Assembly: GCA_016839605.1 (NCBI GenBank)
Contig: JAEOTX010000211.1
Span: 1 to 28,588 of the forward strand
Length of the DNA stretch: 28,588 nucleotides
Direction of reading: 5' to 3'
Origin: Candidatus Thorarchaeota archaeon
GTDB lineage: Archaea > Asgardarchaeota > Thorarchaeia > Thorarchaeales > Thorarchaeaceae
The notes under the pieces were generated by a model. It made no database searches. It had not been told where the DNA came from and saw only the letters and a list, made by a program, of their open reading frames with translations. Of this stretch, positions 17,087-28,588 are shown piece after piece (positions within the stretch are counted from its first letter, which is position 1; every line of letters begins with the position of its first letter). A program made the position numbers and the translations under genes.

Positions 17087-18931
17087 TTAGAGTAAGAATG
17101 TAAGCAGCAAGGCAATCAGAAACGATGCTGCACCAACACGGATTCCCACGCGTTTCGCTATCCCAGCAGCCTCAGCAATGTTTTGGGTGAGAATGTCGAA
17201 CCCTCTCTCACCGAAAGTACATAGATTCTTGACCTCGCCGAAACCAAGCCCCATCCTTACTGGAGAAACGTTCTCACGAGCCTTGTTAGCGGCGATTATG
17301 ATAGCTTCCATAATCTCCTGAGGTTTGTTTTGTCCTATCGGAGGATAGCCTCGACTTGAAAGTGAAATTGCATTCACCACATGTGTGTCTGTTGTCAAGA
17401 CTTCTGCATCATCGAATCCCTGTGTCATCAGAATTCGAATAGCTTCTTCCCGAAAGCCGGGTTCCATGTTGTTACCGTCAAGAGACAGCAAGACGACTTC
17501 GCGCTCTCCGCCATCCAGTACCAAAGCGGTCACACCACCGGGGCCCATTCCTTCATCCGGACGTATATCGTTGGGCACTACTCTGAAGACTCCAGCTGAT
17601 ACCTTCATTTTTGGATTCTTCACTGTGGAGAACACCGCACTAGAGACCGCACCAACGTATTCTCCAGCCTCAGGGTCTCCCGGCATCACCGAAACTGCTT
17701 CTCCATCGATGCAGTTGTGAGCATCAACAATAGACACCCTCTCAATTTCGGGCATCCGTTCCCTCACCATGTCAGCAGCAGCACGACCAACATCCAATGA
17801 AATATCATCAGTGAATTCAGGTGCGCTTGTGCTGATGGTGAGAACATCATTTCCTGCAAAGAGAGTCCAGACTTTGAACTTACCAAGGTCTGACCAATGA
17901 GGCCCAGACATAGTATCATGGACTAGTGTTTCACCAATTAGTCGGTCGATTTCTGCCATGACAATCGGGAAGTCCTTTTTCGAGGTGAGGTTCTGTTGAT
18001 GAGTACAGCTTCCATGCATAACGAAGGCTGGCACTCCATGCGTCTGCTCAATGTGTTCCATAATAGCTGAAGGGAGACCGCTACTTCCAATCTGTCGAAA
18101 AGGTCCAGGATGTACGTATTCAACAACTCCTACCGCAACGAGACCTGCATCGTTCTTGATAACGAGAATCTCAATTGGAATGTCCTGCATCTCTCCGATC
18201 TTTGATAGAGTTGCTTCCATGGGTTCAGAATTGTTGGTGAGATAGTCATACCCGAATGCTCGTAGGAGTTCTGGTCCATTGATGTTGAGGTCTCTTTCAA
18301 ATGGGACGCTCACTGCGCGAAAGATGTAGTTGACTGCTAAGGATAACATGAGAAACATGAAAACTGCCGCTAATAACCACAAAGTGGGTAAGACATAGAT
18401 CGCTCCTCCAAATCCTCCCAGCGCAAAAACCATCAGATACCATAAAGCTGGTATCATCATTGCAGCGATGAAGTTTCGAACTGGATGATAGTCACTCAGC
18501 CCTGTCACAAGGAATGCAAAGAGCATGTATGCTGCGCCAAGTCCCAGTATCCAGAAGCGCACCTCGTAGAAGGTACTGCTGGTCAAGAAGCTGAGAACAC
18601 TACCGATTACTCCAAACACCACCCAGAAGAAGATACCAAATTGGACAGAACCTGCTGTCCTTCTAGCATCAAGAGGTGATCCTTCCTTCCTAACAACCAA
18701 GTAGAGCAGTCCAGTTCCAGCTAATGATGGAATGGCGAGGACAAGGATTGAGATAGAAACTGTGGCAATAATGTCGATTCCTGGTGTGGATTCAATCCGA
18801 AGTGCTGCGGAGATGACTGCGCCTAGCAAGACAGCCACAAGAATTCTGGCAATGATTCCTCTATAGGTGGGTAGCTGCCAGACCTTAGAGTAAAGCCTCA
18901 CAGTTTCCTTGACCTTGGCCTTCTCGCCCAA
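17087..18931 (-). CDS. DUF2070 family membrane protein (predicted ceramidase-like hydrolase)
   Basis: N-terminal TM bundle, then HPGPF..IGSS, HG.CTH, DAHN, DGNN and TTDTH motifs. Start moved to TTG 18931 to avoid the PadR promoter. Confidence 0.88.
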   Translation of the reverse strand: MGEKAKVKETVRLYSKVWQLPTYRGIIARILVAVLLGAVISAALRIESTPGIDIIATVSISILVLAIPSLAGTGLLYLVVRKEGSPLDARRTAGSVQFGIFFWVVFGVIGSVLSFLTSSTFYEVRFWILGLGAAYMLFAFLVTGLSDYHPVRNFIAAMMIPALWYLMVFALGGFGGAIYVLPTLWLLAAVFMFLMLSLAVNYIFRAVSVPFERDLNINGPELLRAFGYDYLTNNSEPMEATLSKIGEMQDIPIEILVIKNDAGLVAVGVVEYVHPGPFRQIGSSGLPSAIMEHIEQTHGVPAFVMHGSCTHQQNLTSKKDFPIVMAEIDRLIGETLVHDTMSGPHWSDLGKFKVWTLFAGNDVLTISTSAPEFTDDISLDVGRAAADMVRERMPEIERVSIVDAHNCIDGEAVSVMPGDPEAGEYVGAVSSAVFSTVKNPKMKVSAGVFRVVPNDIRPDEGMGPGGVTALVLDGGEREVVLLSLDGNNMEPGFREEAIRILMTQGFDDAEVLTTDTHVVNAISLSSRGYPPIGQNKPQEIMEAIIIAANKARENVSPVRMGLGFGEVKNLCTFGERGFDILTQNIAEAAGIAKRVGIRVGAASFLIALLLTFLL

Positions 18932-23632: not shown

Positions 23633-24424
23633 TCAGGCGACCTCTATTGCTTTGGCAGAAGTGAGTGCCATGCCTAGAATGATATAGGCTTCTGTTCTCA
23701 CAAGCTGTCCTAGAGGCTCAATTGGAGAGAGTCCCACACAACACCACAGCACGATCTGCATTGTGAGGATCAATATCGCGATGAATGCTAGTCCTATGGG
23801 GCGCGCTAATCTCCCTCCTCGAAAGACGATAACCACATATCCAAGAGCCAGGGCTATCACGCCCATCCCAATTGCTAGTGGTGAGGTTGTAAGAACCTCA
23901 AGTGGGCTTCTAGCCGGGTTTAGGAGCAGTACCAGGGTGGCTAGAATAAGCATCGCAGCAGTCGGAACTACTATCATTGTCCCGACAAGTCTTCGATCAT
24001 CCGTTGTTTCAAGAACCGAGTTTGAAGCTCTTAGGTATCCAAGAACACCCATTGCCCAAAGAATCAGACCTGGCATCTGAATTAGACTCACTGTGAAGAG
24101 ATACGCTTCACTGCCTTCCTGACTTGCTAAAAGGCTAGCAGCTACTTCGGATATGGCATATAGAACGAGTCCAAGAGAGAAGAAGAGGTTCATCAGGTGA
24201 AATCTGTCCTCTCGTCTGAAGTCTTCCCTACCGAATATGACTAGTCCGATGAATCCCATTATGAGAGCTGATAACGGTGCTGATGACAATCCTAGTGCCG
24301 CTAAAGCCGGTTGTTCATCGTAAATCCAGGCAATCGAACCAAGCACGAGAATAACAATTGCACTGAACAAGAATGCAAATGTCAAGTATCTTTCTCGAGA
24401 TGACACGATCGAGTTGCTCTCCAC
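23633..24424 (-). CDS. Multi-pass (7-8 TM) membrane protein, possible sensor
   Basis: Continuous series of hydrophobic helices with no soluble domain. GTG 24424 is preferred over 24526; start uncertain. Confidence 0.7.
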   Translation of the reverse strand: MESNSIVSSRERYLTFAFLFSAIVILVLGSIAWIYDEQPALAALGLSSAPLSALIMGFIGLVIFGREDFRREDRFHLMNLFFSLGLVLYAISEVAASLLASQEGSEAYLFTVSLIQMPGLILWAMGVLGYLRASNSVLETTDDRRLVGTMIVVPTAAMLILATLVLLLNPARSPLEVLTTSPLAIGMGVIALALGYVVIVFRGGRLARPIGLAFIAILILTMQIVLWCCVGLSPIEPLGQLVRTEAYIILGMALTSAKAIEVA

Positions 24425-24501
24425 GCAAATGCAGACATGAAGTCGTATAATCCTCGATTTGATTGTTTTCCTTATCAATGAGTTCCCGACATGTATGCTG
24501 G

Positions 24502-25713
24502 CTAGGATACCTGAAAGGTTTCCCAATGGATGTCAAAAGCAGTACTTGGGAATTGCCTCTCAATGTAGGTTCGGGCGCCAGTCAAAATTGTATTCACAGG
24601 ATTTGATCCCATAAGGGTACTCATCCTTCTAGTATACTCTTGAAAGAGCTCTCGAAATCCTCCACTGAGAGTTTCAGGAGTTATACTTCCTTTTACTGTG
24701 GCGGACACAAGAGAGGTCTTAATCTCAACATCAACCCCTTCCTCTAATCCAACAAATGCCAGCCATGGAAGTTCTGTGATTAATTTCTCTTTGGAGCTGA
24801 AGAACATGCTCCTCGCAGGCTTTATTCCAAGGATTTTGGCACACCTATTCAGGGTTTCTTGTAATGCTGCTGTATACAATACAGTTGTTGCTTGAGCTGG
24901 AGATACCAATTCAACTGCTTTTCGTTGGGCCAGAACGGCAATCTCGTCGAGAAACTGCTTGAGATCAGATGTCTTGACACGTTCTGCAGCAATAGACAGG
25001 GGGGTCTCTCCATCTAGTTCTGGTAGTACTTTCGCAGTGTCTTCGGAAATACCATCCACCGTTTCAGTTGGATGGATGAGGGTCGTTGCTTGGTAGATGT
25101 CATCTGGCATCGCTGACTGCGAGATCGTAACTGCCTTCTCCCAGAAAGCTTCAGCTGCTAAGTTCATAGCCAATTCAACAGGCACTTCGAGGAACATGGC
25201 AGCTTCCTCGACTGTACAAATTTCGGGGATGAGTTTGAGAAATGAAACGACATCCGCCTTCTGTGTGTAGAACTCCCAATCTCTTCTGATATACATCGTT
25301 GTTTGCGGGACGATTTGACCGCGCACAAACTCCTCTATCACGTTACGTTCAAATCTTGTATATACTGCCAGGTCAAGGTCAACCCATCTCAGCAATCCAA
25401 ACTGGTCCTCAAACGCATAAATAAGACGCTTGAGTTTTTCCCGAATAATCTCCGTGTCTTCTGTGATAGAAATGGCTCCCAGCGTCCACTCGCCAAACTC
25501 AACTATGATTCTATTGTTCGTACCTTCAAAGGCTCTAGCTCTAGACGTCACTGATCGTGTTGCCTCATCAAAGAAAGATGTCATTGCGACGAGAAATGAT
25601 GATAGCAGGTCTGGGTCGAACTCAGGCTCCGCGAAATCGTGGTGATACATACACACACCCGTATCGCGTCTGATGATGTATAGACTCTCTATCTGCATCA
25701 ATCGTTTCCTCAT
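24502..25713 (-). CDS. Longin-like domain protein with tandem winged-helix-like segments
   Basis: N-terminal IESLYII...G.CMYHHDF...DPDLLSSFLVAM.SF...beta-beta-beta...L..L...FE.QF longin pattern; then two 'LxxIxxxxTV/LxxxA' wHTH-like units and a helical C-terminal domain. Confidence 0.78.
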   Translation of the reverse strand: MRKRLMQIESLYIIRRDTGVCMYHHDFAEPEFDPDLLSSFLVAMTSFFDEATRSVTSRARAFEGTNNRIIVEFGEWTLGAISITEDTEIIREKLKRLIYAFEDQFGLLRWVDLDLAVYTRFERNVIEEFVRGQIVPQTTMYIRRDWEFYTQKADVVSFLKLIPEICTVEEAAMFLEVPVELAMNLAAEAFWEKAVTISQSAMPDDIYQATTLIHPTETVDGISEDTAKVLPELDGETPLSIAAERVKTSDLKQFLDEIAVLAQRKAVELVSPAQATTVLYTAALQETLNRCAKILGIKPARSMFFSSKEKLITELPWLAFVGLEEGVDVEIKTSLVSATVKGSITPETLSGGFRELFQEYTRRMSTLMGSNPVNTILTGARTYIERQFPSTAFDIHWETFQVS

Positions 25714-25859
25714 CCTATGTCTTGCCTGGCATACAAGCCCGCTATCCCTCGGCGCTTTCTGATGGACCTACCAGTCACTTTTTGAGGATTCTAGTGAAAC
25801 TGCTAGAGTCAGTATCACTATTCACTAGGACTATAAGGATATGAAAGTGGTGTGGATGT

Positions 25860-26471
25860 ATGACTCCAGACGAGTCTCTTGTCATTACCTGCCCGTCATG
25901 CGAAGAGAGTGAACTAGACATCAATTCCGTACTCTACAGTGTGCCATACTTCAATGAGCTAGCTTTGTTTACGATGACATGTCCGAACTGCAACTTCACG
26001 CATAATGACATCTTCTCAGCTGAACAGAGACCTCCAGGTCGATGGACTCTTAGAATTGACAACGAGGCTCTATTGAGAGTTCGCGTTGTCCGATCCGGTT
26101 CAGGTTCAATCAGGTTGCCAGATTTCGGCATTGATGTGGAGCCAGGTCCTGCAGCAGAGTCATTCATCACTAATGTTGAGGGTGTTTTGCTTCGCACACG
26201 ACCAGTTGTTGAAACCGCAATTCGCTTTGCGGAGACTGACTCAGAGAAGGACAGGGGGAATGAGATTCTGGAGATGATTGACAAAGCAATGAATGGAGAG
26301 CTGCCCTTCACGCTCATTATTGAGGATCCTATGGGCGTGAGTGGTATTCTTCCTGATGATCTCACTCTCGTGGAGCATATTCAACTGAGTCATGAGGAAG
26401 CATCCCAGCTGAGAGGTGCACCTGCGTGGATTGATAGCGCTCGTCAGGACTATACGGAGCGTAAGGGCTAA
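25860..26471 (+). CDS. ZPR1 zinc finger protein (archaeal single module)
   Basis: CPSC...VPYF....CPNC; VVRS; EPGPAAESFITNVEGVL; FTLIIEDPMG.S. Confidence 0.95.
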   Translation: MTPDESLVITCPSCEESELDINSVLYSVPYFNELALFTMTCPNCNFTHNDIFSAEQRPPGRWTLRIDNEALLRVRVVRSGSGSIRLPDFGIDVEPGPAAESFITNVEGVLLRTRPVVETAIRFAETDSEKDRGNEILEMIDKAMNGELPFTLIIEDPMGVSGILPDDLTLVEHIQLSHEEASQLRGAPAWIDSARQDYTERKG

Positions 26472-26503
26472 AAGGTCAGCCCTAGGTCTGAACAGTCAAC
26501 AGT

Positions 26504-26580
26504 GGGCCGATAGATCAGCCTGGCAGATCGTCTGGTTTGCATCCAGAAGGTCGCGAGTTCAAATCTCGCTCGGTCCACCA
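26504..26580 (+). tRNA. tRNA-Ala (UGC), CCA encoded
   Basis: Acceptor GGGCCGA/TCGGTCC with G3:U70; D stem GATC/GATC; anticodon stem TCTGG/CCAGA with loop TT-TGC-AT; T arm GCGAG-TTCAAAT-CTCGC; terminal ACCA. Confidence 0.97.
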
Positions 26581-26653
26581 TCATCTTTCATTTATGTGTG
26601 ATATTGAACAGGTTTTCAGAGTCATCACAAAATCCTACGAATTTGAGAACATG

Positions 26654-27124
26654 TTACGCTCCATCTCTACCAGAGGCGCCTGAATCCATTATTGCTCTCC
26701 CTTCTCTTAGTGCACAATCTCTGTGTGTAGCACGTTCTGCTGGAATTAGCTTATATCCAACATGTGCTGTCACTCTTGACTCAAGGTTTATCGACACCAC
26801 AAGACCGCATGACGTTAGGTAAAGTCCTGACTCAGGTTCCTTCTTCCATGGTTTGCCAGAGTGTATCGGCCCACCATCTTTGATGAGAAACGGTATGCTC
26901 TCCTTAAATCTCTTTAAAAGAATCACTCCAATACTGATCGCACAGATATCTAGAATCATGAATAATGGTAATATTGCGATATCTTGGTAATATTGGGATG
27001 GCAGGGGTCCATATTCACCAGTGTACGTGATTGCAAAGTAAACGCCATAGCTCATTAGGACGAAAATTGGAATCCCTATGATAACTAATACTTTCCCAAT
27101 TAAACGAAGAAGGCGCTTCCTCAT
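26654..27124 (-). CDS. 2-TM membrane protein with C-terminal His/Cys domain (paralog A)
   Basis: MRKRLL followed by two TM helices and FLIKDGGPIHSG...LTSCG...HVGYK...HRDCALREG. Confidence 0.8.
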   Translation of the reverse strand: MRKRLLRLIGKVLVIIGIPIFVLMSYGVYFAITYTGEYGPLPSQYYQDIAILPLFMILDICAISIGVILLKRFKESIPFLIKDGGPIHSGKPWKKEPESGLYLTSCGLVVSINLESRVTAHVGYKLIPAERATHRDCALREGRAIMDSGASGRDGA

Positions 27125-27226
27125 ATAACCATCTCTCTGGTGTCTTTTACCCAAATAACAGTTTTATGTCTTTATCAAAAAACTAGGTTCTCGTTTTTCG
27201 AAACCATTCCATTTGGCAGTTTGTTC

Positions 27227-27277
27227 TGCATCCAGAAGGTCGCGAGTTCAAATCTCGCTCGGTCCACCATCATCTTT
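27227..27277 (+). repeat. att-like direct repeat of the tRNA-Ala 3' half
   Basis: 51 nt identical to 26538-26588, starting at the anticodon TGC and running through CCA + TCATCTTT. Looser similarity continues downstream. Confidence 0.95.
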
Positions 27278-27342
27278 AATTTATGCATAATATTGAACAG
27301 GTTTTCAAACTCGTCATTAGATCTTTCATATTAGAGGACTGA

Positions 27343-27774
27343 TTACGGTCCATCTCTAGTATACCTAACTGATTCCAATATCTCTCTCCCTTCTCTTAGG
27401 GCGCAATCTCTGCATGTTGTACGTTCTACTGTGACAATCTTATAGCCAATATGCGATGTTGCATTTGATTCTTGGTTAATCGACAACACAATTCCGCATG
27501 AGGTAAGGAATACTCCTGATTCAGAACTTCTTTTCCAAGTTTCACCTGAGTGTATCGGCCCACCATCTTTGGTCAGAAACGGATTCTGCTCACTGAATTT
27601 TCTTCGAATTATCATTCCACTAAAAGTCAAAATCAATCCAAAGGGAAGGAATCCAAGGATGACTGCTGTACGGAGGTCAAAGTAGAATCCGGAAAGCGTG
27701 ATTGGGTGAATTAACCAATAAGTGCCAATAGTCACGTTGGTTAGAAGCATTGTCATACCCACTAGTACGACCAT
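27343..27774 (-). CDS. 2-TM membrane protein with C-terminal His/Cys domain (paralog B)
   Basis: FLTKDGGPIHSG...LTSCG...HIGYK...CRDCALREG. The frame is open upstream to a CTG at 27807. Confidence 0.8.
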   Translation of the reverse strand: MVVLVGMTMLLTNVTIGTYWLIHPITLSGFYFDLRTAVILGFLPFGLILTFSGMIIRRKFSEQNPFLTKDGGPIHSGETWKRSSESGVFLTSCGIVLSINQESNATSHIGYKIVTVERTTCRDCALREGREILESVRYTRDGP

Positions 27775-27892
27775 GCTTCCATAATCACGATATTTACGCT
27801 CCTTCAGTTAGTAAACTCTCCTCAATATATAATGAGGATGATACCGCTTTATGTTTTCGCCAAATCAAACCCTTGTAATCTAAATACGCACA

Positions 27893-28588
27893 TTAGCCCT
27901 TGCTGTTTCTCTGTAGTTTCTTTCTAACAGCATCATCAAAATAAACAATAGGAATATCTTGAGCCATCTCTTTCATGTCGTCCAGTATCTCCATGTCCAG
28001 CTCATATTCAGCGGCAAACTCCTTCGCGAAGGAACCATCCTGAATCTCCTTGAGGGATGTCTGCATAGCTTCGCGAAGCTCCGGATTTGCATACCGCATT
28101 CCTCTGGACATACTTCCATACTGACTTGTTGGTGAGTGTAGTTCAAGTTGTTTAAGTGTCCCCATCTTAGCTATCATCTCTGCTGTGTATGCAAACTCAC
28201 CAGACATGTATAGTTCAAGAAGAACAATCTCTGGTGGATATCCAGCTTCAATGGCCACATCAACTGCGGCGATTAGAACCTGTCCAAAGGCTGGACCAAA
28301 GGCTTGCTCATTGAAAAGATCAAGCTCAGCTTCCTGTCGGAAAGTAACTTCTAATACTGCACCACCAGATTTTGTGGACCCAACTCCTTTGGCGATGGCA
28401 AGTGCTATCTCCTTGGCTTTTCCTGATGCGTCATTGTGCACTCCAATGAATGAATAGAATCCCTTGTCGTTCACAAACGATTCTCTGACACCTTTCCCAA
28501 TCATTCTCGGAGCTACGAGGATTGTATCAATGTTTCTGGGCACAGAGAGTGTTTCAAATGCAATGTTGTAACCCGATGCGAAACAAAG
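27893..28588 (-). CDS. ilvC: Ketol-acid reductoisomerase-like protein (class I, divergent clade), 5' end outside window
   Basis: Frame open to the window edge: FASGYNI...VAPRMIG...DASGKA..IA...G...E.ELDLFNEQ...ELYMSGE...HSPTSQYG...IQDGSFAKE. Confidence 0.85.
   Translation of the reverse strand, partial: LCFASGYNIAFETLSVPRNIDTILVAPRMIGKGVRESFVNDKGFYSFIGVHNDASGKAKEIALAIAKGVGSTKSGGAVLEVTFRQEAELDLFNEQAFGPAFGQVLIAAVDVAIEAGYPPEIVLLELYMSGEFAYTAEMIAKMGTLKQLELHSPTSQYGSMSRGMRYANPELREAMQTSLKEIQDGSFAKEFAAEYELDMEILDDMKEMAQDIPIVYFDDAVRKKLQRNSKG

Follow-up and report, generated by a model that had tools for sequence, protein, structure and literature searches.

How does a single gene come to lie between an intact tRNA gene and a second, partial copy of that same tRNA? 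The question is raised by the right-hand end of contig JAEOTX010000211.1 (GenBank assembly GCA_016839605.1) of a Candidatus Thorarchaeota archaeon, where a 689-bp unit consisting of the 3' part of a tRNA-Ala(TGC) gene, a spacer and a reverse-strand gene is followed by a second unit of the same make-up. The stretch of DNA that was analysed, referred to as the window, is the whole contig of 28,588 nucleotides; it is contig C156 of a metagenome-assembled genome (MAG) of 3.08 Mb in 259 contigs, which is 80% complete with 4.6% contamination and is assigned to a genus labelled g1. Homologues of its proteins likewise point to Thorarchaeota, a lineage of the Asgard archaea. G numbers denote genomes, L numbers fetched loci and C numbers contigs of the window's own MAG. 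The original prediction, made from the letters of the window, held that the unit is a non-autonomous cassette captured by site-specific recombination at the tRNA and forming an integron-like array. The reading adopted here, with a probability of roughly 0.5, is that the 689-bp unit is a single-gene cassette in an array anchored at tRNA-Ala(TGC), and that arrays of this kind recur in Thorarchaeota.

Layout of the two units

The two units and the tRNA gene that precedes them comprise the following features.

26504–26580, plus strand: intact tRNA-Ala(TGC), the array anchor, attL-like (ARAGORN; Rfam RF00005, 64.9 bits)
26538–26588, plus strand: repeat copy 1, anticodon through CCA, then the 8-nt trailer TCATCTTT; exact 51-mer with two occurrences
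26581–26653: spacer A, 73 nt, from CCA to the stop of gene A
26654–27124, minus strand: gene A, 156 amino acids, ATG start, clade A; two N-terminal transmembrane helices and a His/Cys-bearing C-terminal domain of ~85 residues; no Pfam match
27125–27226, minus strand: upstream region of gene A, up to repeat copy 2
27227–27277, plus strand: repeat copy 2, attR-like, a partial tRNA (3' part) with its trailer; g1-like and g5-like DNA meet here
27278–27342: remainder of spacer B
27343–27774, minus strand: gene B, 143 amino acids from ATG, clade B; the family-homologous frame runs to 27807 and begins with CTG

The 51-nt string that runs from the anticodon TGC to 8 nt past the CCA end has exactly two copies at an offset of 689 nt. 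The stops of genes A and B, at 26654 and 27343, are likewise 689 nt apart, and both spacers are 73 nt long and free of indels. Exact string search, ARAGORN, Rfam and the positions of the gene stops all confirmed this layout, as well as the identical 51-nt repeat beginning at the anticodon, both of which had been claimed originally. As in integrative elements, the direct repeat corresponds to the tRNA from the anticodon loop to its 3' end, and the intact tRNA stands at one end; the unit itself encodes one membrane protein of 156 residues and no recombinase.

The wider repeat between the units spans ~300 nt at 78% identity. The original prediction had proposed plotting identity along the two units, and in 40-nt bins the plot rises from 35% before the anticodon to 100% in the tRNA piece, falls to 88%, stays at 60–82% through the 3' half of the genes to ~26940 and then drops to 32–52%, which is the noise level. 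No alignment is obtained between the units over their last 250 nt. Spacers A and B match without gaps at 57 of 76 positions (75%), counted over the spacer and the stop codon, and no spacer resembling either one was seen in any other locus examined. The same trailer, TCATCTTT, follows both repeats, and every other g1 or g5 genome examined carries a different post-tRNA trailer (g5 being a second genus of Thorarchaeota). The DNA 5' of repeat copy 2 is not tRNA, save for a weak TGGCAG...TTTGTTC resemblance, and no homologue of the last 54 nt before this copy was found in any of the searches. By alignment, the spacer is the only sequence specifically common to the two units. Gene conversion reaching into the coding region was considered and rejected: A and B differ at 8 of 25 fourfold sites, which is not below the 11 of 32 between A and the L040 gene or the 8 of 21 between B and the L033 gene. 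The shared and otherwise unique spacer makes the two units hard to explain without a common local history.

Single-gene arrays bounded by tRNA fragments

Genes A and B belong to one protein family, and this family is tied to tRNA ends. Every family copy examined, other than those cut by a contig end, has a tRNA-Ala gene or a same-orientation tRNA 3' fragment 8–85 nt after its stop codon, and the common core of the fragments extends from the T-loop to CCA. A family gene lies between two fragments in L040 (CCA ends at 2619 and 2015), L054, L051 and L032, the last with two copies. The L040 gene belongs to clade A and is 66% identical to A; the small fragment-gene-fragment unit recurs there in an unrelated context.

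Rows of fragments are found at several loci. Eight fragments were located by BLAST in 7.6 kb of L051, seven stand behind an intron-bearing tRNA in L032, five behind tRNA-Ala(GGC) in L048, and three each in L030 and L044; the arrays anchored at Ala(GGC) are L047 and L048. Each array interval holds one open reading frame (ORF), which fills the interval and may lie in either orientation. The cargo is unrelated from interval to interval and includes NosD/beta-helix, LVIVD-repeat, FMN reductase, SnoaL-like, old-yellow-enzyme and cupin proteins together with unknowns. Scanning of the cargo ORFs in the L032, L051, L048, L030 and L044 arrays revealed no recombinase and no replication or packaging gene; a single DNA-methylase match covers only the C-terminal end of the Pfam profile and looks truncated. 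When L048 is compared with L051, and L030 with L044, the common blocks begin and end at fragments and the intervals between them are non-homologous, with the flanks of L030 and L044 being 92–95% identical. No literature on such arrays in Asgard archaea was found.

Fragments also occur on other contigs of the window's own MAG. C109 (L068, 1–4926) has five plus-strand fragments in 4.9 kb, ending at 29, 509, 1686, 3663 and 4815, and C75 (L069) has two; the fragments on both contigs match the 3' end of an intron-bearing tRNA-Ala(CGC) gene on C82. On C239 (L067), a 25-nt fragment of the Ala(TGC) type is followed by a PEMT-like gene and then by a g1-type H+-pyrophosphatase (PPase) gene, while the other side of the fragment holds an ORF of 274 amino acids without known function and, beyond it, a Rad51/KaiC-like ATPase gene. 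Because C239 combines an Ala(TGC)-type fragment with the g1-type PPase, the organism's own array extends beyond the part that the window covers.

The tRNA-Ala(TGC) locus in related genomes

Comparison of the locus across strains had been proposed as a check on the cassette. The relatives compared here are different species from the window's organism, and among them cassette content and layout do vary: the locus is laid out differently in every relative examined, with 0, 1 or 2 copies of the family gene per locus by tblastn. The commonest order is ZPR1, tRNA, family gene, ketol-acid reductoisomerase (KARI) and PPase, as seen in G020, L031/L046, L034/L035 and other g5 genomes. In g1, ZPR1 and the tRNA are followed by an insert, a decayed fragment of 18–21 nt, the family gene, a hydrolase gene and PPase.

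The insert between tRNA and fragment measures ~560 nt in L043. G005 (L021, 2981–8224) and G015 (L022) carry an extra island of ~5 kb directly after tRNA-Ala, which L043 lacks and which encodes a class-I methyltransferase, a B12-binding radical-SAM protein, a radical-SAM/SPASM protein, a TetR regulator and an ORF of unknown function; a similar island without the methyltransferase is present in G011 (L023). KARI is located elsewhere, away from the tRNA-Ala site, in G005, G015, G011 and L043-type g1 genomes, and directly follows the tRNA in G016, which is also a g1 genome. In G086 (L033, 2346–4133) the tRNA region occurs in three tandem copies with a period of 849 nt, separated by two detected gene copies; the repeats there comprise whole tRNA genes, not just 3' parts, and the outermost tRNA copy is decayed. 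As is seen for integrative elements, the site is unoccupied or holds other inserts in relatives, none of them being of the same species as the window.

Some tRNA-Ala(TGC) genes of Thorarchaeota (L031/L046/L072/L073 and L029/L041) themselves carry insertions. One type comprises 27 nt in the T-loop region, at which BLAST alignments split after position 59 and which ARAGORN missed. The other type is a 30-nt intron after the anticodon.

The cargo family

The family is an orphan. It numbers 35 proteins among 5.8 billion, and all those with source names are labelled Thorarchaeota or Promethearchaeota. A profile search of 1.84 billion representatives returned 26 proteins, of which 24 are 59–191 amino acids long, mostly ~150; the two long matches, to leucine-rich-repeat and immunoglobulin-repeat proteins, were dismissed as spurious. 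A and B are the sole copies in the MAG. Family members combine two N-terminal transmembrane helices with a beta-rich C-terminal domain of ~85 residues that contains an invariant His, Cys, His and Cys. The cargo is probably a small membrane-anchored protein with both ends in the cytoplasm according to the positive-inside rule. The AlphaFold model of the full-length protein has a predicted local distance difference test (pLDDT) score of 77.5, and that of the C-terminal domain folded alone scores 49. With regard to function, the family gave no match to Pfam, no usable match in the ESM Atlas and no match in a profile search against the PDB; Foldseek comparison of the AlphaFold model with the PDB yielded no match at E ≤ 0.001. 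In the VIA wide search, the matches obtained were confined to the helical hairpin, residues 1–75.

In a gene tree of 59 family members (like the other trees, a quick search with support by the Shimodaira–Hasegawa-like approximate likelihood ratio test, SH-aLRT, only), A falls into a 17-member clade together with the g1 genomes G005 and G015 (SH-aLRT 96), and B into a 22-member clade with the g5 genomes G020 and G086 (SH-aLRT 98). Since A and B lie in separate, well-supported clades, their divergence is, on the tree, the distance between two old gene lineages and not decay after capture. The original view of the cargo as one captured gene that had since diverged does not hold. The two units do not have the make-up of a simple tandem duplication either: they are not homologous over their full length, their last 250 nt being noise, and A and B are not each other's closest relatives. 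The statement that the N-termini fail to align applies to the DNA; as proteins, A and B are homologous at their N-termini and 45% identical over the whole length. Clade-A and clade-B proteins with neighbouring locus tags (ACW96M_05760 and ACW96M_05755) are encoded on one NCBI contig of 2760 nt.

In members of every family clade, a conserved promoter-like motif precedes the start by ~40 nt, and it is found in the window at two positions.

27163–27179: promoter-like motif upstream of gene A, degenerate, plus-strand sequence TTTATGTCTTTATCAAA
27848–27864, minus strand: promoter-like motif upstream of gene B, plus-strand sequence TTTATGTTTTCGCCAAA; also upstream of family genes in L040, L041, L028 and L029

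The in-frame stop upstream of gene B occupies 27808–27810, the point at which the feature of the original prediction ends. The 11 codons between this stop and the ATG of B still encode the family N-terminus, and the first of them is CTG. Gene B may be N-terminally shortened or beginning to decay, with its putative ancestral start reading CTG right after the stop.

A seam between g1-like and g5-like DNA

Two genes that flank the units indicate where the DNA on either side belongs.

25860–26471, plus strand: ZPR1 zinc-finger gene (Pfam jr-ZPR1 and Zn_ribbon_ZPR1); conserved left flank of the tRNA-Ala locus, genus-g1-like
27893–28588, minus strand: KARI (ilvC), 3' two thirds (C-terminal 231 codons), cut by the contig end (Pfam KARI_N and KARI_C); g5 type

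The left flank, 25001–26588, shares 77–83% nucleotide identity with g1 loci, and the ZPR1 region 65–68% with g5. The window's KARI is 83–89% identical in amino acid sequence to g5 versus 72–78% to g1, and it is nested in the g5 clade. A second KARI gene, on contig C41 of the same MAG (18092–18778), groups with g1 (87% identity to G005) and shares its gene neighbourhood with g1 relatives. Within the taxonomic family KARI has a patchy distribution, matching in 5 of 41 sampled genomes at E ≤ 1e-30, the window's own included, and in genera g1 and g5 only. Because the left flank is g1-like, the window's KARI is nested in g5 and a g1-type KARI lies on C41, repeat copy 2 is by sequence affinity the boundary between g1-like DNA (26.5 kb and gene A) and g5-like DNA (gene B and KARI). 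That the second repeat separates DNA of two genera was missed by the original prediction. For the seam being a real cross-genus join at a tRNA-derived site, the chances are evenly balanced.

ORFs of 403 amino acids (24502–25713) and 297 amino acids (23633–24526), both on the minus strand and without Pfam matches, adjoin ZPR1. The remaining ORFs of the window are housekeeping genes or lack a Pfam match, and none of the large ORFs yielded an integrase or transposase domain.

Recombinase search and proposed mechanism

A repeat that starts in the anticodon loop, together with a restored tRNA, is the classical footprint of insertion by an integrase. Anticodon-loop and T-loop crossover classes of tRNA-targeting integrases were reportedly distinguished by Williams in 2002, and the anticodon-loop boundary of the window's repeat fits a known crossover class of tyrosine integrases. 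The original statement that no integrase is present is borne out, since the window's ORFs hold no recombinase domain and neither the window nor the MAG, which is 80% complete, gave a PF00589 match. Among the 17 genomes of the genus (MAGs that are 62–92% complete), PF00589 was found in four, at five loci, none of which adjoins a tRNA gene or a piece of one. No exact match to the 32-nt tRNA end was present in IMG/VR viral contigs, and a degenerate 26-mer matched solely a 159-kb virus bearing its own tRNA cluster. An integrase or element with the same att, which the original prediction had suggested looking for, did not come to light in IMG/VR, in the window or in the MAG. Three results argue against a resident integrase: window, arrays and MAG yielded no tyrosine recombinase, PF00589 occurs in only 4 of the 17 genomes and never next to a tRNA, and IMG/VR gave no viral contig with this att.

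Even a Xer-type recombinase went undetected in most of the 17 genomes of the genus when Pfam Phage_integrase was used. The 159-kb viral contig (L061, IMGVR_UViG_3300045988_122866) has at least ten tRNA genes, and the 3' end of its tRNA-Ala(TGC) matches the Thorarchaeota type.

In the proposed mechanism, units of one gene with its own promoter would be joined head to tail at copies of the tRNA 3' part. DNA bearing this part would recombine with the tRNA gene or with an older fragment, leaving the tRNA intact and a fragment on the far side of the insert. The crossover could be made by a site-specific recombinase acting in trans, perhaps from an unbinned element, or by homologous recombination, with the tRNA 3' part serving as portable homology. 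Homologous recombination may suffice because most of the g1 and g5 genomes examined share all 77 nt of the tRNA-Ala(TGC) gene with 100% identity. In the genome of the window, the process would have placed a g1-type cassette beside a g5-type block made up of B and the second ilvC; the fragment may be perfect because the join is recent, or it may have been refreshed by exchange with the tRNA 689 nt away. Of the integron-like capture proposed originally, the cassettes bounded by tRNA-derived repeats and the variable arrays stand; capture by a recombinase is a step that we infer, and the same pattern would result from homologous recombination within the conserved tRNA piece. A retro-copy produced by tRNA-primed reverse transcription of an antisense mRNA was rejected, as each unit includes the upstream promoter region of its gene.

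A broader proposal can be put forward only tentatively: Thorarchaeota may run an integrase-independent exchange of cassettes, with the tRNA 3' part as the portable site, even between genera. Single genes with their promoters would then be excised and re-inserted at any copy of the site, and the tRNA-Ala locus would be the archaeal counterpart of an integron, which is likewise doubtful. If the exchange takes place, the window would show a recent cross-genus join by which a second ilvC arrived.

Several observations weigh against the cassette reading and the cross-genus join. No recombinase, excised circle or empty-site read was seen. The 5' ends of the fragments vary, lying in the anticodon loop in the window and mostly in the T-loop elsewhere, a pattern more in keeping with several enzymes, or with homologous recombination, than with a single dedicated system. 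The best protein match of A is 71% identical, and no close donor of cassette A was found. All g1 genomes with a KARI match have a single KARI gene and the MAG has two. The g5-type piece amounts to just 1.36 kb at a contig end, the rest of the window's KARI is not in the MAG, and the MAG has the completeness and the 4.6% contamination given above.

Alternative explanations

These last points also bear on an assembly chimera, in which a g1-type Thorarchaeote contig was joined to a co-occurring g5-type one through the common tRNA 3' part, so that the perfect and seemingly non-functional half would really be part of the other organism's working tRNA. The g1-like character of the left 26.5 kb, the g5-type KARI at the right end, the match of tRNA, gene and KARI to the standard g5 layout and the presence in the MAG of its own g1-type KARI, syntenic with g1 relatives, are all in keeping with a chimera, as is the end of the contig 1.36 kb past the seam with the rest of KARI unbinned. 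The exact gene B protein, with a later start call (P0038), occurs moreover on JGI contigs of ≤ 3018 nt; gene B is also encoded exactly on a Logan contig of 1556 nt, and gene A on other contigs in JGI/IMG. The small ORF that crosses the junction had no match in an exact look-up. However, the upstream region of gene A joined to a tRNA piece that starts at the anticodon must exist in real DNA anyway, and the same trailer with equal-length, 75%-identical spacers, a combination seen at no other locus examined, would have to arise by coincidence in two genera. If one of the common metagenome assemblers was used, it further counts against a chimera that their final k-mer exceeds the shared stretch of 51 nt. 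With two genera meeting at the second repeat, a chimera is a serious rival of the cassette reading, but on balance it is considered rather unlikely.

An old local tandem duplication followed by divergence would require no mobility, the tRNA half being kept perfect through gene conversion, with the tRNA 689 nt upstream as donor. The same locus has been amplified in tandem in another Thorarchaeote, as L033 of G086 shows with its period of 849 nt; identity declines with distance from the tRNA piece (100%, 88%, 60–82%), and clade-A and clade-B proteins are neighbours on the 2760-nt NCBI contig. Such an origin is nonetheless very unlikely, given that A and B belong to different well-supported clades common to many other genomes, that B and KARI are g5-type whereas A and the left flank are g1-type, that the last 250 nt of the units are unalignable and at noise level, and that other g1 genomes carry one family gene and no KARI at the tRNA-Ala site. 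In a third scenario the single genes were never mobile, and full-size, integrase-bearing viruses or plasmids integrated at the tRNA were trimmed down to the gene adjacent to att. Tycheposons offer a documented case of tandem integration in which partial tRNAs and degenerate elements are left behind (bioRxiv 10.1101/2020.12.28.424599), tyrosine recombinases are present in 4 of the 17 genomes of the genus, and larger inserts are found at the same tRNA in the form of the 5-kb radical-SAM island of G005, G015 and G011. Decay of full-size elements is unlikely because the intervals hold single intact, space-filling ORFs with their own promoters and no integrase or replication remnants; among the scanned cargo ORFs no integrase or replication domain was seen, and the one DNA-methylase match looks truncated. 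The recurrence of the same small clade-A unit between two fragments in the unrelated context of L040 is a further argument against it.

Relation to known systems

In structure, the nearest parallels to the arrays that the cassette reading describes are tandem accretion at tRNA genes and the islands that tycheposons build from tRNA genes. Cis-mobilisable elements (CIMEs) are integrase-less derivatives of integrative elements flanked by att sites. tRNA-targeted integration with tandem accretion, CIMEs included, resembles the window in that one end holds an intact tRNA and the opposite end a displaced copy of its 3' part, and resembles the Thorarchaeota arrays in that newer inserts lie next to the tRNA and several fragments stand in a row. 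The Thorarchaeota units differ in being single genes of 0.5–1.4 kb with no integrase in the unit, array, window or MAG, and the insert in the window carries a homologue of the resident neighbour gene instead of element genes.

Tycheposons of Prochlorococcus form islands seeded at tRNA genes, including Ala(GGC) and Arg(TCT) (Hackl et al., bioRxiv 10.1101/2020.12.28.424599). The elements in these islands are separated by partial tRNAs, further ones are scattered, and their accessory cargo is diverse; tycheposons encode a tyrosine recombinase along with a replication module, and old copies are recognisable by fragmented integrases (bioRxiv 10.1101/2020.12.28.424599). In contrast, the Thorarchaeota arrays were found to have neither recombinase nor replication modules, reside in Asgard hosts and hold one gene per unit.

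A further comparison is with integrons, including the archaeal integrons of Ghaly et al. 2022 (PMC9668308), and with clusters of attC sites lacking integron-integrases (CALINs). Both integrons and CALINs share with the Thorarchaeota arrays the rows of mostly single-ORF cassettes, the recombination-site-like repeat at the 3' side of the gene, and the variation of content and order between relatives. Unlike an integron, the Thorarchaeota arrays have no IntI (PF00589 being unmatched in the window and the MAG), are headed by a working tRNA gene and not by attI with Pc, and have as their repeats the tRNA T-arm and acceptor ending in CCA instead of attC hairpins. Their cassettes lie in both orientations, and the cargo family has its own conserved upstream motif. 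By analogy, the arrays may be said to resemble an integron in function, as stacked and swappable one-gene units, yet they depart from it in IntI, attI, attC and promoterless cassettes.

Implications for Thorarchaeota

The genomes of Asgard archaea are large and rich in genes and contain much foreign DNA, and few mobile elements that would explain it have been described. To the arrays seen in relatives, the window adds a repeat that starts in the anticodon loop, a gene family never found away from a tRNA end, and a seam between two genera. Should the seam be an artefact, the conserved tRNA pieces in such arrays can yield chimeric MAG contigs; should it be real, core metabolic genes such as ilvC travel in the same way. 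If the cassette reading is true, rows of single genes bounded by tRNA ends, without a recombinase nearby, would be a simple and general route of gene gain, gene loss and exchange across lineages.

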